Shown here piece by piece: positions 22,901 to 37,900 of a stretch of 64,000 nt of DNA. Position 1 is the first letter of the stretch; each line of letters starts with the position of its first letter. Source of the stretch: a plasmid; assembly GCF_057098645.1 (NCBI RefSeq), contig NZ_JBXSPU010000002.1. One strand, 5' to 3'. The position numbers were made by a program.

Positions 22901-25900
22901 CCGTACCCCTTCATTGGCCGGTTATTCATGTCTGTCAGTAACTCCCTAAGGCGCGCATTCAGCGCCCTGAGCGTGTGGAAGGTTTCATTACGGATGCGGG
23001 CAAGAAGCCATCGTTCAACGATGAGGACGCCGTTTTCTGCTTTTGGTTTATCTTTAGGTTTGCGTGGTCGGGCCGGGATGATAACCGTGCCATAGTGCTC
23101 AGCCAGTGCCTGATAACTGTCGTTGATGACAGGCTCATATCGATCGGCCTTTTTCACTGCGCTTCTGAGGTTATCGGGGATGAGCAGCTTCGGTACGCCG
23201 CCCAGGAAGGTCAGGCAACGGCTGTGGGCATTTAACCATGACATCATGTCCTGACCTTCGCACGCTTCAACGTAGGTATAGTTGGACGCCCCCATTACGG
23301 CCACGAAGATTGCCACGCGGCGTATCTCACCGGTGTCCGGATTAATAACAGGAACCGTAGGACCACAGAAGTCGATAAAAAGCTTTTCGCCGGCACGATG
23401 CTCCTGGCGCATGGAGAGACGTCGCGTTTTTTTCCACTCCCGGTAGCAACGGCAGAAGTGCGAGTATCCCATCGCTTTGTTACCCGCCTGTGCCTTGTAT
23501 TCCATCCACAACAGTTGCCGCGTCACACCTGGTTTTCTCATTTCCGTATCGAAGTACAACATGTCAGGCATTACAAGCTCTGATGCAAAGGTGTCTTTGG
23601 GCGGAAAAATGAGTTTCTCCAGCGTGTCATGGGATATATCAGCAGGTAATGGCCATGACAGAGAAGAGGCTTTGAAGCGGGCAAGAACCTCAAAAACGGT
23701 TGAGGCGCTGATGTGTAACGTCAGTCCGATACAACGGTTAGTCAGCTTCTTGTCGAACTTGAGCTGAAGGATCTTAAAACAGGTTTCCATAGTGCTCCTG
23801 GATTTTCTCTTTCTGGACATTGACGTCTCCACTGGTTTAAACACGGCAATGGAGACTGTGGTGAAAAGAGTTAATTCCCGGAGTGACTGGCAGGATGCCA
23901 ATCAATGATCGGAAGCATGCCAAATCGTGATCGATTGTGATGCCAAACTGTGATCGGAGATGGATGCCAAATCATGATCGATTCGAATGCCAAACTGCGA
24001 TCGATTCAGATGCCATTTTGCACTTAATATGGTTGGGAGGTCCGGTGAAAGTTCTAAATAACAAAGGCGCAGTAATCGAATTACCCAATTTTTCAGAACT
24101 CCTCCCGAAGGTTGAATCTGATGATGGGCGATTTTCAAAACCAAAAAATAAAATATCCAAAGAGCAACGAGCCGAACTGCGTTTGAAATTTGGCGGTCGG
24201 TGTGCCTACTGCGGCTGTCCTTTGCCGGAAAAAGGCTGGCATGCCGATCATGTTGAACCGGTGAGGCGGGATTTTGAAATGGTCAGAGCCCCCGCTGGAA
24301 GTCGAGTGACACACCGGGCTCGAAGTACCGGTAAGGTCATGCACCCTGAACTGCATGCAATCGAAAATCTTTTTCCGGCTTGCGCCCCCTGCAATCTCTT
24401 TAAAGGTGCATTAAGTGTTGAAGGCATGAGGAAAGAAATAAGCCGCCAGGTAGAACGCGCCAGGGCATACAGCGTCAACTTCAGAACCGCAGAGCGATTT
24501 GGGTTAATTGAAGTCACGGAAAAGCCGGTTGTCTTCTGGTTCGAAATACATCAGGCGACGGCACAATAATTGAAGGCTTAATAAACGAGGAGAATACCGA
24601 TGTTTTTGCACCTTGTACCAAAAATCCTGCATCCGATGGGAAATCTTTGCACGCTGGATTCCGTAAGCGTCCCGGAACTGTCGCTACGCCTGACTGGTAA
24701 TGACCTTGTTGCGATGCGCCCTTATCCCAACAAGCAATACCTGGTGGGGATGCTGAAGGGGCGTAGGGCGCTGAATGGATTTTTGGTCAAAAGTCCCCGT
24801 GCGTTTGAAGAGTTTACGATGGTGTCCGTCTGGAATATCGAAGGATTCGGCAAAATAACGCACACCCTGAAGACTTTTGTCGAAGATACAGATTATGACC
24901 TGGTTTCCCATGACGTGCTGCTGGCGCAAGGGAGCTACCGAGCACAAGCGTCTGAACAGTGTCGTGTTCACCCTGTTTATAAAAACATTGCGCCGGTACA
25001 CATCGAACCGAAGATGGAATCACTGCTGTCGACCGAACCCAATTTCGAGAACGATGTCTGTGAAACCCATTCGTGGGGGATGCTGGTGCGTTCGCGGGAT
25101 GAGGGGTTTAAGGCAATGACGATGCCTTCCGCACGCCTCCAGGAGTCGGTAGCGCTGCGGGGGGATCGCCAGCCACAATTGGAACAGGCCATCGTTATTA
25201 CCGGGTGAGCGAAGGTCAGCCTGATGTCGTTGCTCAGGCTGACAGATATCTCAATGGATATATATGACATGACTGAAAAAGAGGTTCGAATGGACGAAGA
25301 TAAGGTACTGAGTTTCATAAACAGCGGGGACGGCGACGCCGGAGATCTCCTTGATGATGCAATGCCGACTGCCGCACGTCGATTCTACCGACTGACTCAG
25401 TCGATGCACACATTGCTGGGGGAAGTCAGAGAGCATTTTCCTGATGCTATGTTTTTTTCCGCTAACGGCAAGGTGAGCCTACTGCTTGGGAGTAGTCATA
25501 ACAAGCATGACCAGCCAATGCAGGAAATGGTGGCTGTTTCTGCGACGCAACTTCATATCGAAGGTGGTGACTGGTAGGCCTGTCGGTGTAAATCGCGAAA
25601 ACGCGAAAAATTTTAGAGACGTGTCCTATATGTCGAATACATACTGAAGGTGGATGATTCCTTTCTTCATCCTGAAGGATATTAGTTTAGTAACTCGATT
25701 CAGTATAATAAATTTAAACCCCATCCATTCAATTACCTGCAAGGACATGAATATGGATAAGTATCTGGCGCTGGACAGGGCACTCAACGAAATTCTTACC
25801 CCAGTTCCTACGCCGTTCTCGACATTATTTGCCGGAGAGATCAAAGCAGAGTGTCACCGGATTGCAGCCGGGGAAAGCAATCCGCAACCGTCGCATATTC

Positions 25901-34900: not shown

Positions 34901-37900
34901 AACATGAAACAGCAGATCTGATCTTCGAGGCACTGACTTTCTCCCCAACGCCCGAACTGGAGCTGGCGAAATTTGTCCGTCTCAAATCGGTGCGCCGGAT
35001 TGCACAGTTTGATGACGGGGAAGTACGTTATGGGGTTCACGTGGAACTAGACGAAGCTGTTAATATTAATTCCTTCCGCATTTTTAAGGATGATAATACA
35101 GGCGGGTTTGATTTTTATTTGTTTTCTGTTTTAGGTAATAATGCAGAGCTTGTCCAGATTAATCTGGATGCCAGCAATATTCATTTGCAGGACATTTTTG
35201 AACGGTCTACCGGTTTGTGTTTGTCCTACTGATGAATTTATTAAATATTTCACATCAGGTTGTTAGCCACGAGGCTGAATATGAAATAATAAGAAAAACA
35301 ATGAGGTGAAATATGAAAACTTTAAATATTCAGGTTAATGACATCGCAGCAATTAGCGCACTTGGCGGCTCAATGTTGGCGGATATTATCGCCGCGCAAT
35401 ATAAAGTGATTGATGATACCAAAGACGCATCTGAAATGGCCATGCCGTGCATTGCTTACGGGCAGATCCCCGCAAACATCGGCCCGGGCGTCTTTATCAA
35501 TCGCGTGTACAGCATGGACAGCCAGTCACTGAGTGCCAGCCAGCGTTACGAGCTCTTTAACGGACTTGCAACCCAGGCGTTTACCTTCTTTTTCCAGTCG
35601 GGCTGGTATGGCGCATTCCGTGTTGTGTCTTTCCGTGATAACGGTCCTGCCGGACTCCTTAATATCGGCATTGTCCATGACAAGGTGTTAAACGAATTTT
35701 GCGATGATTTTCCACGGGCTAATGTCAGCGAAACTGGCTTCAACTGCGGCATGACGTTTGACCAGATCCGGATGTTTATTTCGGACCTGGCCTATCAGAT
35801 GCCTTTGTACAACAACCAAGACCACTTCGTTAAACTCGCCAAACACCTCGCGGCCTGACACCCCTAGCCAGGCTCCGGCCTGGCGATTATGAAGGAAATT
35901 CTTATGAGCGATTTATTCAGCAGCGAATCACCGGTAACACTGGCTCAGGCACGCACTGTCGCCGCTGGGTACCAGAACGTCTTTATCGAAAACCTCCAGC
36001 CAGCAGGCCATTTCCAGATTGTCATCCGTGATCATCGCGACCACGACAGCCAGCTGGTCTGGCGAAACTGGAATTATGAATCCGGTGCCAATGATGCGCT
36101 CAATAGCTACCTGCAAAGCCATGGGCTGAAGGCCAGTTGATTAGCACAAGAACCCGGTAACACCGGGTTTCTTTTTTGTGGGCTCAGCACTCAGAGCTGG
36201 CATACGGAAAAAGGATCATTGGGCTGTCCGGGGCCCGCAGCTGGTGGTGTAAGCCTGGCCTCATGCAGATGGTTTAGCCGGGGGCGGTGATGATGCTGGG
36301 AACTAAAAAGAGATCTGGCATCCGGAAAGAAATCTTCGGTACCTCATGGCCTGCGTGGTGGATATGTCTGGCTGACGACTGCGGTGTCGTCTGTGACGGA
36401 CTCGCTCCATAATAATTTGCGGTCGGGAGAAAAGGGGCGTGTTAACAAAATTTAAGAACAAGGGACTTTAATATAAATACCGAGTCCATTAACGATGACG
36501 CACAGGAGTTTTGTGATGTTACTCAATATTGCATTAATCCTCTATGTTGCTGTTTGTCTTTACCTCTGTCTCCGTAATAAAAAGGCACTTTACCGTTTCC
36601 AGGGCGGAGGGCGTCAGTTTACGCAGTCCAGTAAGAGTGGAGCGAACACAGGCGAAAGTGGTTTCTTCTTAATCTCCGGCTACTCAGACACTGGCGTTGG
36701 GGGCGACAGTGGGGACGCTGGTGGCGGATGTGGGGGCGGTGGTGATTGATACAGGGTGCAGGCACCCGATTGTCGGGGGGCTATCGACAGGGGGTAAAGT
36801 TGACGGATTTTTTCGTAATGGTTTTGCGTCCGTGGTTCTGGCTGGTGGATGGTGAAGTCAGAGGATCTGGTTTTAATCAAGACGGATAGAAAGTAACTTT
36901 ACGGAATCTGTCATACGCAACCGGAAAGAAAATCTCACGCAGGGCAGCAAAGGCACGCCAGAGTGGATTTGCAGATTCGGACGGGAAAGCCTATTTTTCA
37001 TGCACTGAACCTATTTGGGCTGGAACGGAACCTGGTATAGTAGACTCATACAAAGGAGGGCATATGAATACTTTTCTTTACGTGCTGGTGGGCTGGATTA
37101 TCGTTCTATATCTGGTTAATAAAGTCCGCGAAAAGTACAGCAAACCGAAAACAGTTAATATCCTAGTGAAACGCAATGGCGTTTATCAAGAAGTGGAAGC
37201 CGTAGTGATGCCTCGAAGCCATAATAGCGATGTGGGTACAGGTAAGACCGGCAATGAAGCCGCCCCACAATGGTTGAATAAAGAGGATGATATTTCTGAA
37301 CTGGAGTACTACAGTGGCGGGTCACTCTTGAAGGCTGCAAGAGATTTTGAAGCTCAACAAATGGAGCAAAAATTCTAGCCACACTATCAGTGTCCACGAT
37401 TGGGAACTGATCGTGAAACCCTTTACTTTCAGATTCAATAAAGTCGGATGCGAGGAGTTGATTAATGACAACGGCAAACGTAACCACCACTATTTACCGT
37501 TCCGATGACATCGTGCCTTTTCGTCGGCCGCAGGGAGATCTGGATAATCGCTATATGCCGCAGGCTTACGCTCTGGTGCGGAGCTGGGCCAGCAAACCTG
37601 CGGAGTACGGTGCAGGAGTTCTGGCTACCTACAGACAGCCGGTAGTCAATCTCGGGTATAAGATAAAAGGGACTCGCGTTGTTTTAATTCTTGTCCCTAT
37701 CGAATGTGAGCCGGTTGGCGTAAAAATGACTGACGCCGCTTTATGGCCGTCTCTATCGATTGGGGAGGCCATGCGAATTATGCAGGAAGCGTGGCAAAAT
37801 ATTCCGGAGTTGAATCCATAAAAAACCCCGCATTTGCAGGGTTTTTTTTTACTTTGCCGATCTGAACATTTTACTCAGTATAAGCCGAGAAAAGCGCAAA

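Follow-up and report, generated by a model that had tools for sequence, protein, structure and literature searches.

A conserved block of small co-directional genes in the IncHI1 plasmid backbone, with a ParB-family protein as candidate binder of a dispersed palindrome

Introduction

Leading regions of the F and ColIb-P9 type carry ssb, psiB, ardA/klcA, hok/flm, ParB-like and DUF905 genes together with Frpo/ssi single-strand promoters. In the MOBF and MOBP model plasmids (F, RP4), the relaxase genes are not the first to enter. Plasmid-wide control is exemplified by KorB of the IncP plasmids (RK2/RP4), a ParB homologue whose binding sites are twelve promoter-located 13-bp O_B palindromes (TTTAGCSGCTAAA) spread over the plasmid. 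The host-defence-evasion (hde) operon of IncC and SXT/R391, vcrx089-093, comprises an AAA_5/CbbQ_C ATPase gene, vcrx090, ssb, bet and exo, with AAA_5/CbbQ_C, RecT and YqaJ domains among its products; it lies mid-plasmid and has been proven experimentally to act in the recipient (PMC7498323). Here we analyse a block of small genes within a 64,000-nt stretch of plasmid DNA (the window), which an initial annotation had described as possible early-entry, anti-defence cargo.

Results

A constrained segment of the IncHI backbone

The presence of a small-gene block at 24045-37821 was confirmed (Table 1). About 25 small co-directional genes had been proposed, and the RefSeq annotation together with our own translations gave 26 genes on the plus strand and a single one on the minus strand (31896-32075), a bias of 26:1 (two-sided binomial P = 4e-7) that bears out the description of nearly all genes as plus-stranded. 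The left edge is indeed an IS21 element, confirmed by identification of IstA/IstB, and the bidirectional terminator predicted at 37.8 kb is real. Shine-Dalgarno sequences are visible for about 21 of the 26 plus-strand genes, in line with the good ribosome-binding sites described. The proposed size range of 46-200 aa holds for nearly all proteins (46-202 aa, median 93 aa) but misses one of 401 aa; likewise, the spacers are short by their median (86 nt), but eight of them span 175-923 nt and the coding density is only 68%. Several tiny membrane proteins and many products without a recognisable motif had also been noted; we predict six small membrane proteins, and about 19 proteins fall outside Pfam.

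The block is 100% identical to the IncHI1 (R27-type, MOBH) backbone, with identity spanning 24023-37850. This backbone stretch is carried at an identity of at least 99% by about 216 IncHI1A plasmids, for example pYPE10-190k-tetX4 (pYPE10), and R27 also carries the block. The block is truncated at the IS21 junction; its counterpart in pYPE10 continues for about 9.4 kb further upstream, giving a co-directional run of 23 kb. A similar block is held by IncHI1B plasmids. Syntenic IncHI2 homologues exist for 22 of the 27 genes (43-85% amino-acid identity), and pN/pS lies between 0.14 and 0.50 in 21 IncHI1/IncHI2 pairs, including ORFs of 46-59 aa, with synonymous sites near saturation. Because of this synteny and constraint, the roughly 27 genes are, as judged by sequence comparison, real IncHI backbone genes maintained by selection, and the label of cargo was wrong.

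Selfish or phage-derived small genes (toxin-antitoxin, HNH nuclease, morons) might also have accumulated passively, with no role in establishment, regulation or defence evasion. Eight block proteins match PHROG families of unknown function, HNH and hok genes are typical selfish elements, the coding density is low, and many of the genes are unexpressed in R27 microarrays. This explanation is nevertheless improbable, since IncHI1 and IncHI2 share gene order and content although their synonymous divergence is saturated, regulatory elements are conserved in common between the block and transfer promoters, and block genes are derepressed together with transfer genes in an htdA mutant.

Table 1. Coordinates of the block, its genes and control elements, and neighbouring transfer features in the window
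Feature	Coordinates	Strand	Remarks
IS21/IncHI1 backbone junction	24022..24023	.	IS21 left, backbone right; backbone identity begins at 24023, 22 bp 5' of first gene
g01, HNH endonuclease, 174 aa	24045..24569	+	phrog_2118 HNH endonuclease, E 1.4e-53
g02, DUF6012 protein, 202 aa	24600..25208	+	Pfam DUF6012, E 1.3e-29
g03-g06	25254..26727	+	PHROG families of unknown function; pI and TM predictions: g03 107 aa, acidic (pI 4.65), relatives also in IncHI1B plasmids; g04 73 aa; g05 82 aa; g06 121 aa, four predicted TM segments
Terminator	26750-26772		After g03-g06 unit
g07, 96 aa, very acidic (pI 4.13)	26954..27244	+	RefSeq name DUF957
g08, DUF3085 protein, 163 aa, acidic	27249..27740	+	Predicted single-domain DNA-sliding-clamp-like fold
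g09, 423-nt spacer, g10	27854..28690	+	g09 68 aa; g10 68 aa, two predicted TM segments
Palindrome copy	28271-28283		In g09-g10 spacer
Terminator	28700-28717		After g10
g11-g16, six small proteins, 56-201 aa	28744..31208	+	All kept in IncHI2; g11 acidic; g14 Cys-rich, basic; g15 basic; g16 two predicted TM segments
hok/mok/sok type I toxin-antitoxin locus	31407..31724	+	sok 31407-31568; mok-like frame from 31422; Hok 31566-31724
Strong intrinsic terminator, 16-bp stem	31788..31823	+	After hok; closes unit C
g18, sole minus-strand gene, 59 aa	31896..32075	-	IncHI2 72% identity, pN/pS 0.20; phrog_19934
g19 control region	32355..32529	.	Palindrome AAAAGTWACTTTT at 32355-32367 and 32473-32485; extended -10-like box GAACCTGGTATTGT at 32516-32529
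g19, orphan ParB-family DNA-binding protein, 401 aa	32579..33784	+	phrog_1033, E 2.2e-17; Pfam HTH_ParB, E 1.3e-4
g20-g24: 93, 46, 50, 145, 181 aa	33850..35858	+	IncH-restricted ORFans
g25, DUF905 protein, 78 aa	35904..36140	+	Pfam E 4e-14; PDB 2hjj E 2.4e-9
Terminator	36150-36170		After g25
77-aa ORF	36516..36749	+	Within 923-nt spacer; one predicted TM segment, Gly-rich tail; annotated in R27, not in pYPE10; not kept in IncHI2
Last-unit control region	36889..37041	.	Palindrome 36889-36901; box GAACCTGGTATAGT at 37028-37041
g26 and g27	37064..37821	+	g26 104 aa, one predicted TM segment; g27 118 aa
Bidirectional terminator	37822..37850	.	Common to block and convergent relaxase (H) operon
Tra1 H operon (context)	37849..47859	-	Tail-to-tail with block; from oriT-proximal end leftwards: MobI/TraH, hypothetical, MobH relaxase TraI, coupling protein, hypothetical, DUF4400 protein, S49 peptidase, NERD-domain protein
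oriT intergenic region (context)	47860..48589	.	Four tandem hairpin units of ~43-44 bp, 48128-48290

Gene content and transcription units

The block is made up of five tandem units separated by intrinsic terminators. A box, GAACCTGGTATWGT, occurs upstream of g19 and g26 only and is kept in IncHI2; ordinary double-strand sigma-70 promoters, marked by this common extended -10-like box, seem to drive at least the last two units. Whatever served as promoter of the first unit is removed by the IS21 junction. In R27, genes around flmA are derepressed 6-17-fold in an htdA mutant (PMC7366339), and R0100, which corresponds to g16 by position, 17.5-fold (PMC7366339 supplement). Several other block genes are silent in established R27 cells (same supplement); R-numbers were mapped by gene order only.

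The HNH nuclease of the initial annotation was recovered with its CxxC...HxDH...N...CxxC motifs intact, and its IncHI2 orthologue is 79% identical (pN/pS 0.19). The DUF6012 gene follows it in IncHI1 and IncHI2 alike, and g07 always lies immediately upstream of the DUF3085 gene, although DUF957 was not recovered for it in a concatenated Pfam scan. The genes g20-g24 are constrained (pN/pS 0.18-0.38) and rare: the g23 family forms 22 clusters among 5.8e9 proteins, and g24 has 11 representatives among 1.84e9. The DUF905 protein is genuinely homologous to its F leading-region counterpart (35% identity, E 8e-15) and also to YkfF.

The hok-like toxin gene proved to belong, by sequence-family evidence, to a complete hok/mok/sok post-segregational killing locus: sok matches Rfam RF01794 at 89.1 bits (gathering score 59), and Hok, a full 52-aa ORF here and a 39-aa ORF in the pYPE10 annotation, scores 118.5 bits with NCBIfam Hok (cut-off 73) and matches Pfam HOK_GEF. 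As in the R1 parB locus and F flm, a full-length Hok and a sok match accompany an overlapping mok-like frame and a terminator directly 3'; at the protein level, Hok is 73% identical to that of the F leading region (flm), with no notable difference.

A ParB-family protein and a 13-bp palindrome

The 401-aa protein, g19, resembles KorB in architecture: a ParB domain with FNTR and RQGACRIRA motifs at the N-terminus is followed by an HTH, a linker rich in Pro, Thr and Glu, and a C-terminal domain. It had been called a ParB-like nuclease-domain protein; membership in the ParB family, based on box II and the HTH, stands, whereas nothing points to a nuclease. The family profile matches ParB/Spo0J/Noc structures (E 1.6e-8 across box II and HTH). 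Orthologues are found in IncHI2 (65%) and IncHI1B (36%), each preceded by copies of a 13-bp palindrome, AAAAGTWACTTTT, six of them in IncHI1B.

This palindrome has 13 exact sites against 0.03 expected and is found at about 27 positions over 130 kb of the plasmid, including two before g19, two in other island spacers and one on each side of oriT (48045-48057 and 48530-48542). The control elements of g19 stand out as conserved islands in an otherwise diverged IncHI1/IncHI2 spacer, and the palindrome offsets in IncHI1 and IncHI2 are -223/-105 vs -227/-101 for g19, -174 vs -174 for g26, counted from its start codon, and -187 vs -187 for traH. Like O_B, it is 13 bp long with a degenerate central base and is dispersed at promoters and intergenic regions, among them those of g19 itself and of transfer operons. 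In three IncH lineages it precedes the ParB-like gene, and it flanks oriT, a distribution that suggests a KorB-like regulon with g19 as candidate binder. The system differs from IncP in that g19 has no ParA (IncC) or KorA partner gene next to it, its box II is degenerate (GACRIRA vs GERRxRA), some sites fall inside coding sequence, and PDB searches gave no pairwise similarity of g19 to KorB, the matches being chromosomal ParB, Spo0J and Noc.

Neither F nor an Aeromonas locus considered below contains the palindrome. TrhR/TrhY are disfavoured as binder because the trhF promoter spacer has no copy; HtdA, another factor or either of two further ParB-like paralogues encoded by the plasmid could bind instead. 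We consider g19 and the repeated site likely to represent a plasmid-wide regulator and its candidate binding site.

Discussion

Order of entry

The oriT is reported to lie between traH and trhR (Lawley 2002); its intergenic region holds the hairpin units, with arms AAAGTGACCCTATG / CATAGGGTCACTTT, and the island genes point towards oriT from about 10.4 kb away. In a leading-region model, DNA on the relaxase side would enter first, and the plus-strand genes, with the incoming minus (T) strand as template, would be expressed early so as to neutralise restriction, CRISPR or SOS. The initial annotation was right that the content resembles that of a leading region, and the orientation does as well: the block is a run of small co-directional genes facing oriT, as in F and ColIb-P9, it shares DUF905, Hok and a ParB-superfamily protein with the F leading region, where these likewise point at oriT, and several of its genes are silent in established cells. 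The model also gains from the 23-kb run in pYPE10. On the minus strand, the oriT hairpin array forms a more stable fold (-49.0 vs -42.3 kcal/mol; z -6.4 vs -5.5), and in F controls the more stable strand is the T strand, but the difference here comes from one or two wobble positions. Palindromes of 6 bp are slightly rarer left of oriT (O/E 0.58-0.76) than right of it (0.74-0.84). Pilus-assembly genes come first on the side opposite the relaxase, where published scans show no leading-region signal in PTU-HI1A. MOBH relaxases are atypical; in the gonococcal island, the inverted repeat lies 3' of nic (PMC6736028).

Other features set the block apart from F- and ColIb-P9-type leading regions. It lies behind the relaxase operon, not opposite to it, so that early entry would require ten kilobases of relaxase and coupling genes to precede it, contrary to the MOBF and MOBP models. 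Folding scans that recover the F hairpins found no Frpo-like single-strand promoter hairpin in any island spacer, and the 6-bp palindrome O/E is 0.71-0.76, compared with 0.47-0.58 in F, where our control recovers the depletion; avoidance in the block does not exceed that seen elsewhere in the backbone. The block lacks ssb, psiB, psiA, ardA and klcA and contains no orphan methylase, most of its families are IncH-restricted, and DUF905 is missing from the IncHI2 block. Overall, the early-entry, anti-defence interpretation is supported in part, and the leading-region model is the less likely one.

Under the usual relaxase-last rule, a position downstream of the relaxase operon would imply late entry of the block, and relaxase genes have been placed in the lagging region (PMC3737333). 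In the searchable literature we found no publication on the MOBH1 nic site and transfer polarity, and primer extension and interrupted mating both failed to settle them for IncA/C (PMC5587640). We lean mildly towards late entry, while early entry, with the relaxase side first, is a serious but lesser prospect.

Defence and defence evasion

No block protein matched anti-restriction, SOS-inhibitor, SSB or anti-CRISPR families (ArdA, KlcA, PsiB, SSB, Acr) in Pfam, NCBIfam, PHROGs or PDB sequences, so that the anti-defence part of the initial annotation found no known family. Of two structure models, one showed the clamp-like fold of the DUF3085 protein and the other, an AF2 model of g24 (pLDDT 75.7), gave no convincing fold match; neither is ArdB/PsiB-like. 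No DefenseFinder anti-defence system was reported in PTU-HI1A (2026 preprint).

The reverse idea, that the plasmid carries an anti-phage or anti-plasmid defence island here, could appeal to the HNH nuclease adjoining a partner of an uncharacterised family, to the adjacent NERD-domain gene and to the type IV-A CRISPR system beside the similar block of IncHI1B relatives. It is close to refuted: PADLOC found no defence system in the block, only sub-threshold HNH matches (E ~2e-3), and ATPase, methylase or sensor partners are absent from it.

A link to defence evasion comes from DUF3085. On an Aeromonas contig, a homologue shares a co-directional block with orphan methylases and an AAA_5/CbbQ_C-RecT-YqaJ cluster, whose domains are those of the hde operon, and a copy on a Vibrio plasmid sits among orphan methylase and VWA genes. 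IncC and IncHI plasmids both have a MOBH relaxase, and the IncC establishment genes act in the recipient though far from oriT. The likeness has limits: the five hde genes are all missing from the block and from the examined parts of the IncHI1 plasmid, and the link is the neighbourhood of a single family.

A proposed accessory segment of IncHI resistance plasmids

With the order of entry left aside, we favour, at a probability of about 0.55, the view that the block is a conserved part of the IncHI backbone with accessory, regulatory and establishment roles, convergent with the relaxase operon and about 10 kb from oriT. In this segment, g19 would act like KorB of IncP by binding the palindrome, and this would place the island within a control circuit that spans the plasmid, transfer promoters included. 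The remaining genes, namely those for the HNH nuclease and its DUF6012 partner, the clamp-like DUF3085 protein and its DUF957 partner, DUF905, the six small membrane proteins and about 15 ORFans found only in IncH, might influence DNA metabolism and the new host once transferred, perhaps including defence evasion. The model for this is IncC, whose proven host-defence-evasion genes do not adjoin oriT either.

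A conserved segment of the IncHI backbone

The block of small genes, numbered g01 to g27 from left to right, is 100% identical to the IncHI1A backbone (R27-type, with a MOBH relaxase and MPF_F; e.g., pYPE10-190k-tetX4, hereafter pYPE10), and R27 also has it. The initial annotation had placed an IS21 junction at its left end and a bidirectional terminator at its right end, and both were found there: the backbone identity starts beside the IS21 element, 22 bp ahead of the first gene, and the terminator is common to the convergent Tra1 H operon (Table). The description as an island of about 25 small co-directional genes was equally accurate, with 26 genes on the plus strand and one on the minus strand (two-sided binomial P = 4e-7), and a median protein length of 93 aa (24 of the 27 proteins have at most 200 aa, and one has 401 aa). 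Its spacers, described as short, are so in the median (86 nt), but eight of them measure 175–923 nt and the coding density is 68%. The block falls into five units, namely g01-g06, g07-g10, g11-hok, g19-g25, and g26-g27, which are separated by four strong terminators on the plus strand and closed by the one at its right end. The co-directional run extends about 9.4 kb further upstream in pYPE10 (locus L001, 8618-18000), a part absent from the window, so that the copy of the block studied here is truncated. This upstream stretch contains a RelE/ParE toxin, a flavin reductase, a 791-aa PAPS-reductase-family protein, and additional small ORFs; in both IncHI1 and IncHI2, intact plasmids show this upstream continuation of the block.

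The block had been taken for cargo, a view contradicted by its conservation. In the IncHI2 plasmid pHNSHP45-2, it is present with unchanged position and orientation, and it encodes syntenic homologues, with 43–85% identity, for 22 of the 27. Across 21 IncHI1/IncHI2 pairs, among them the ORFs of 46–59 aa and the minus-strand gene, pN/pS ranges from 0.14 to 0.50 with pS of 0.45–0.93. In IncHI1B plasmids, more than 40 small co-directional genes form a comparable run, among them homologues of g02, g03, g07, and g19. The synteny, the pN/pS values, and the IncHI1B run together indicate that the genes are real and constrained, and that the block is conserved backbone rather than cargo. At the position of the minus-strand gene g18, IncHI2 has four minus-strand genes versus one annotated in IncHI1, and a possible extra minus-strand ORF of 71 aa lies upstream of g18.

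To the left of the block, the window holds a decayed F-type transfer region, in which traI is split into two ORFs, traD lacks its first ~100 residues, and traG lacks its first ~180 residues. As IS21 joins this decayed region to the IncHI1 backbone, the replicon is, judged from its sequence, an IncHI1/IncF hybrid.

Table. Coordinates of features in the window.
Feature	Position	Remark
Decayed F-type transfer region	1-24022	
traI, two ORFs	12101-13873, 8604-12104	
IS3-type frameshift element	16576-16692	listed with truncated traD
istB-containing ORF	21483-22481	IS21, at the junction
istA	22255-23901	IS21, at the junction
Start of backbone identity	24023	
Block identical to IncHI1A backbone	24045-37821	
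Palindrome copy	28271-28283	upstream of g10
mok-like frame	31422-31724	overlaps hok
hok	31566-31724	full ORF
Possible extra ORF, minus strand	32159-32374	
Palindrome copies	32355-32367, 32473-32485	upstream of g19, -223 and -105 from ATG
GAACCTGGTATWGT box	32516-32529, 37028-37041	upstream of g19 and g26
77-aa ORF	36516-36749	
Palindrome copy	36889-36901	upstream of g26, -174
Bidirectional terminator	37822-37850	right end of block
End of relaxase operon	37849-39760	S49 (SppA-like) peptidase and NERD-domain protein
H operon, from terminator to oriT		NERD-domain protein, S49 peptidase, DUF4400 protein, hypothetical, coupling protein, MobH relaxase TraI, hypothetical, MobI/TraH
oriT intergenic region	47860-48589	then trhR and pilus genes on plus strand
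Palindrome copies flanking oriT	48045-48057, 48530-48542	-187 of traH; -59 of trhR
oriT hairpin array	48128-48290	
Remaining palindrome copies	41579-41591, 43309-43321, 48970-48982, 51608-51620, 57145-57157, 57227-57239, 61762-61774	

Gene content of the block

The 27 proteins were searched against NCBIfam, PHROGs, Pfam, PADLOC, and PDB sequences with concatenated queries. The only families matched were HNH, DUF6012, DUF3085, DUF905, Hok, and ParB, and about 19 proteins have no Pfam family, in keeping with the earlier impression of mostly unrecognisable genes. The profile searches that had been proposed for anti-restriction, anti-CRISPR, and SOS-inhibitor families returned no match to ArdA, ArdB/KlcA, ArdC, PsiB, SSB, or anti-CRISPR proteins in Pfam, NCBIfam, PHROGs, or PDB sequences, and the PADLOC defence-system models gave no match in the block beyond two sub-threshold HNH hits.

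Two of the individual assignments made at first sight could be sharpened. The HNH nuclease is g01, an HNH endonuclease with intact motifs, after which a DUF6012 protein is encoded in both IncHI1 and IncHI2. The hok-like toxin belongs to a complete hok/mok/sok locus (Hok, NCBIfam 118.5 bits against a cut-off of 73; sok, Rfam 89.1 bits against a gathering score of 59), with a full Hok ORF of 52 aa that has an ATG and a Shine-Dalgarno sequence and is annotated in this form in R27. The RefSeq Hok of pYPE10 has 39 aa and starts at ATA, a non-start codon. The DUF905 protein g25 is a relative of YkfF and shares 35% identity with the DUF905 protein of the F leading region. Six membrane proteins are predicted (g06, g10, g16, Hok, g26, and that of the 77-aa ORF), and four proteins are strongly acidic (g03, g07, g08, and g11). 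The 77-aa ORF, whose product has a single predicted transmembrane helix and a microcin-like tail rich in Gly, lies inside the 923-nt spacer; it is present in the annotation of R27, not in that of pYPE10, and is not conserved in IncHI2, where conservation of this spacer is limited to the last 77 bp.

The families of g23 and g24 are tiny and IncH-restricted. That of g23 comprises 22 clusters among 5.8e9 proteins, a depth insufficient for reliable modelling, and that of g24 has 11 representatives in a set of 1.84e9. Their position between the ParB-like and DUF905 genes, near the psiB site in F, raised the idea of a PsiB-like or ArdB-like identity, which was not borne out for g24, whose model (pLDDT 75.7) had no convincing structural neighbour.

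A ParB-family protein and a dispersed palindrome

We defined membership in the ParB/Spo0J superfamily by an N-terminal ParB domain (box II, GxxRxxA) combined with a ParB-type HTH. When g19, its orthologues, and its paralogues were combined into one profile, this matched ParB/Spo0J/Noc structures over both box II and the HTH with an E-value of 1.6e-8, and box II reads RQGHCRxRA in the g19 family versus GERRxRA. Further matches were obtained to phrog_1033 (E 2.2e-17) and HTH_ParB (E 1.3e-4). These profile alignments identify g19 as a member of the ParB/Spo0J superfamily. There is no pairwise similarity between g19 and the ParB-like protein of F. Two ParB-like paralogues are encoded in pYPE10 (locus L009, 8626-9783 and 17113-18189), with 29% and 26% identity to g19 in the multiple alignment, or 35% and 33% over the regions aligned by tblastn. 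The cognate ParA gene expected of a ParABS partition system is absent from the flanks of g19, where the neighbours are genes of 59 aa and 93 aa without an ATPase match.

The window contains 13 copies of the 11-mer AAAGTWACTTT, whose extended form is the 13-bp palindrome AAAAGTWACTTTT, where 0.03 would be expected, and all of them fall within its IncHI1 part. Apart from the copies upstream of g10, g19, and g26 and those flanking oriT, they lie within tra genes, at tra gene ends, or in other spacers. Copies also occur in loci L001, L003, L004, L009, and L010, and 27 were counted over 130 kb of pYPE10. The corresponding sites of IncHI2 also hold copies (-227/-101 for g19, -174 for g26, and -187 for traH), and when the diverged IncHI1 and IncHI2 spacers are aligned, the palindromes are among a few conserved blocks. 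In IncHI1B, six copies are clustered just ahead of a gene 36% identical to g19. There are none in the F plasmid or the Aeromonas locus that encodes a DUF3085 homologue, nor adjacent to the two IncHI1 ParB-like paralogues. We found no paper on AAAAGTWACTTTT in the IncH literature. We regard AAAAGTWACTTTT as a candidate operator for a regulon that spans the plasmid.

In IncP plasmids, the ParB-family protein KorB binds O_B sites, which are 13-bp palindromes with a degenerate centre located in its own and in transfer promoter regions. The IncH palindrome resembles O_B in its length, its degenerate centre, its proximity to g19 and to transfer promoters, and its candidate binder of the ParB family. 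In this reading, g19 is a probable KorB-like regulator, which would load at, or bind, AAAAGTWACTTTT across the backbone, including both promoter regions flanking oriT. Binding by TrhR/TrhY in place of g19 is less likely, since the palindrome is missing from the 612-nt trhF upstream spacer and from the sequence immediately before trhA. The units g19-g25 and g26-g27 also appear to have a common promoter type, because an identical extended -10-like box, GAACCTGGTATWGT, is found upstream of g19 and g26 only, and it is kept in IncHI2. The box points to ordinary double-strand promoters for these two units.

Published R27 microarrays reported that most plasmid genes were derepressed in an htdA mutant, in this stretch R0100 by 17.5-fold, R0105 and R0110 by ~6.5-fold, and flmA by 5.9-fold (PMC7366339). 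R0104, which corresponds to g19 by position, was highly expressed, and R0106-R0109 and R0111, assigned to the stretch by position only, gave no signal in established R27 cells (PMC7366339).

Comparison with leading regions and the direction of transfer

A leading region lies on whichever side of nic is first into the recipient, as set by the nic position and the transferred strand. In F, this region contains a DUF905 gene, a ParB-family gene, and hok facing oriT, beside ssb, psiB, and an antirestriction gene. The block has DUF905, the ParB family, and hok in common with it, in the same orientation towards oriT, and the silence of R0106-R0109 and R0111 in established R27 cells also speaks for such a region, but the block is located behind the relaxase operon, on the relaxase side of oriT. 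All 26 plus-strand genes face oriT at ~48.2 kb, and they would have a template on the incoming strand only if the minus strand is transferred.

Hairpins were sought by an inverted-repeat search, by 200-nt DNA-fold scans, and by whole-spacer folds with shuffles. The single-strand promoter hairpins that the initial annotation suggested looking for were absent: whole-spacer folds detected nothing like Frpo in the spacers of the block (z +1.9 to -2.7), whereas in F, used as the control, oriT was recovered together with three structured spacers, one ahead of ssb where the known Frpo lies, one ahead of the antirestriction gene, and one close to oriT, with z of -5.1 to -7.9 and stronger on the T strand. 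The 200-nt scans, which reached ~42 kb leftwards and 36 kb rightwards from oriT, flagged only oriT. The sole other mildly structured spot was the pYPE10 spacer just before the PAPS-reductase gene (z -3.2). The block also lacks the 6-bp palindrome depletion of the F leading region, with an O/E of 0.71–0.76 versus 0.58–0.84 elsewhere on the IncHI1 backbone; the corresponding values in F are 0.47–0.58 for the leading region and 0.82–0.92 for rep/sop.

Within the oriT spacer, four units of ~43–44 bp are arranged in tandem, each a hairpin of AAAGTGACCCTATG and CATAGGGTCACTTT, with two of the arms being the variant AGTGCCACTT. With z of -5.5 to -6.4, this array is the most structured DNA both in the scan of window 24-49 kb and in the pYPE10 scan of ~42 kb on the left and 36 kb on the right of oriT. 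Its fold is somewhat more stable for the minus strand, a difference that rests on very few bases, and the O/E of 6-bp palindromes is a little smaller on the left side of oriT than on the right; both are weak hints of relaxase-side-first transfer. No nic consensus of the IncP, F, or R388 type was found in the oriT spacer, and the literature searched offered nothing usable on the nic site or polarity of R27, SXT, or IncA/C. For IncA/C, primer extension and interrupted mating both failed (PMC5587640), and the only mapped MOBH nic is that of the gonococcal island, which is atypical in having the inverted repeat 3' of nic (PMC6736028). The proposal of an early-entry, anti-defence block is partly supported: the resemblance to a leading region is real, but the computational tests of early entry and of known anti-defence genes were all negative or undecidable, and we put the chance that the block enters the recipient early at a little short of even.

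Defence evasion

Homologues of the DUF3085 protein g08 occur in co-directional blocks in an Aeromonas contig, together with AAA_5/CbbQ_C, RecT, YqaJ, DUF3150, VWA/CobT_C, and orphan methylase genes, and in a Vibrio plasmid, upstream of traF-traH, where a VWA gene and a methylase gene are the neighbours. The host-defence-evasion (hde) operon vcrx089-093 of IncC encodes AAA_5/CbbQ_C, SSB, RecT, and YqaJ domains, mediates evasion of type I restriction and CRISPR, works in the recipient, and is not beside oriT (PMC7498323). The tie between the block and hde would thus run through the neighbourhood of a single family, DUF3085, by way of the Aeromonas contig. According to a 2026 preprint, the anti-defence genes of PTU-C are clustered 50–100 ORFs from oriT, and PTU-HI1A has none detectable (10.1101/2025.04.03.647016). 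By analogy with the IncC hde operon and the PTU-C genes, both situated away from oriT, defence evasion by MOBH plasmids need not require a leading position. At the end of the relaxase operon next to the block, the NERD domain has a weak match to the N-terminus of the defence kinase MAD6 (MADS), far below the cut-off (E 9e-10).

Biological implications

The best-supported reading is that the block is a conserved regulatory, maintenance, and establishment segment of IncHI plasmids, with hok/sok and a probable KorB-like regulator, and with mostly unexplored content. A bolder proposal, which we consider rather unlikely, is that g19 and AAAAGTWACTTTT form an undescribed KorB-like circuit of IncH plasmids and that the block is the "missing" establishment and defence-evasion set of PTU-HI1A, made up of families outside the anti-defence catalogues. 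A stronger corollary would be that transfer of MOBH11 plasmids begins on the relaxase side, in which case the block would be a true leading region.

IncHI plasmids carry the multidrug resistance of typhoid, and also mcr-1 and tet(X4). How R27 enters other Enterobacterales so efficiently is described as unclear in the same 2026 preprint (10.1101/2025.04.03.647016). With 27 conserved and constrained genes, nearly all without function, the block is the most obvious place to search for an answer; it is partly co-regulated with transfer and has family ties to the F leading region and, via DUF3085, to hde-type domains. Two questions become directly testable through the block, namely the location of the IncHI establishment and anti-defence genes and the direction of MOBH transfer. 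The polarity of transfer would test the bioinformatic rule that the relaxase enters last for MOBH plasmids, and the pair of palindrome and ParB-family protein could bring to light a global regulator in a plasmid family of clinical importance.
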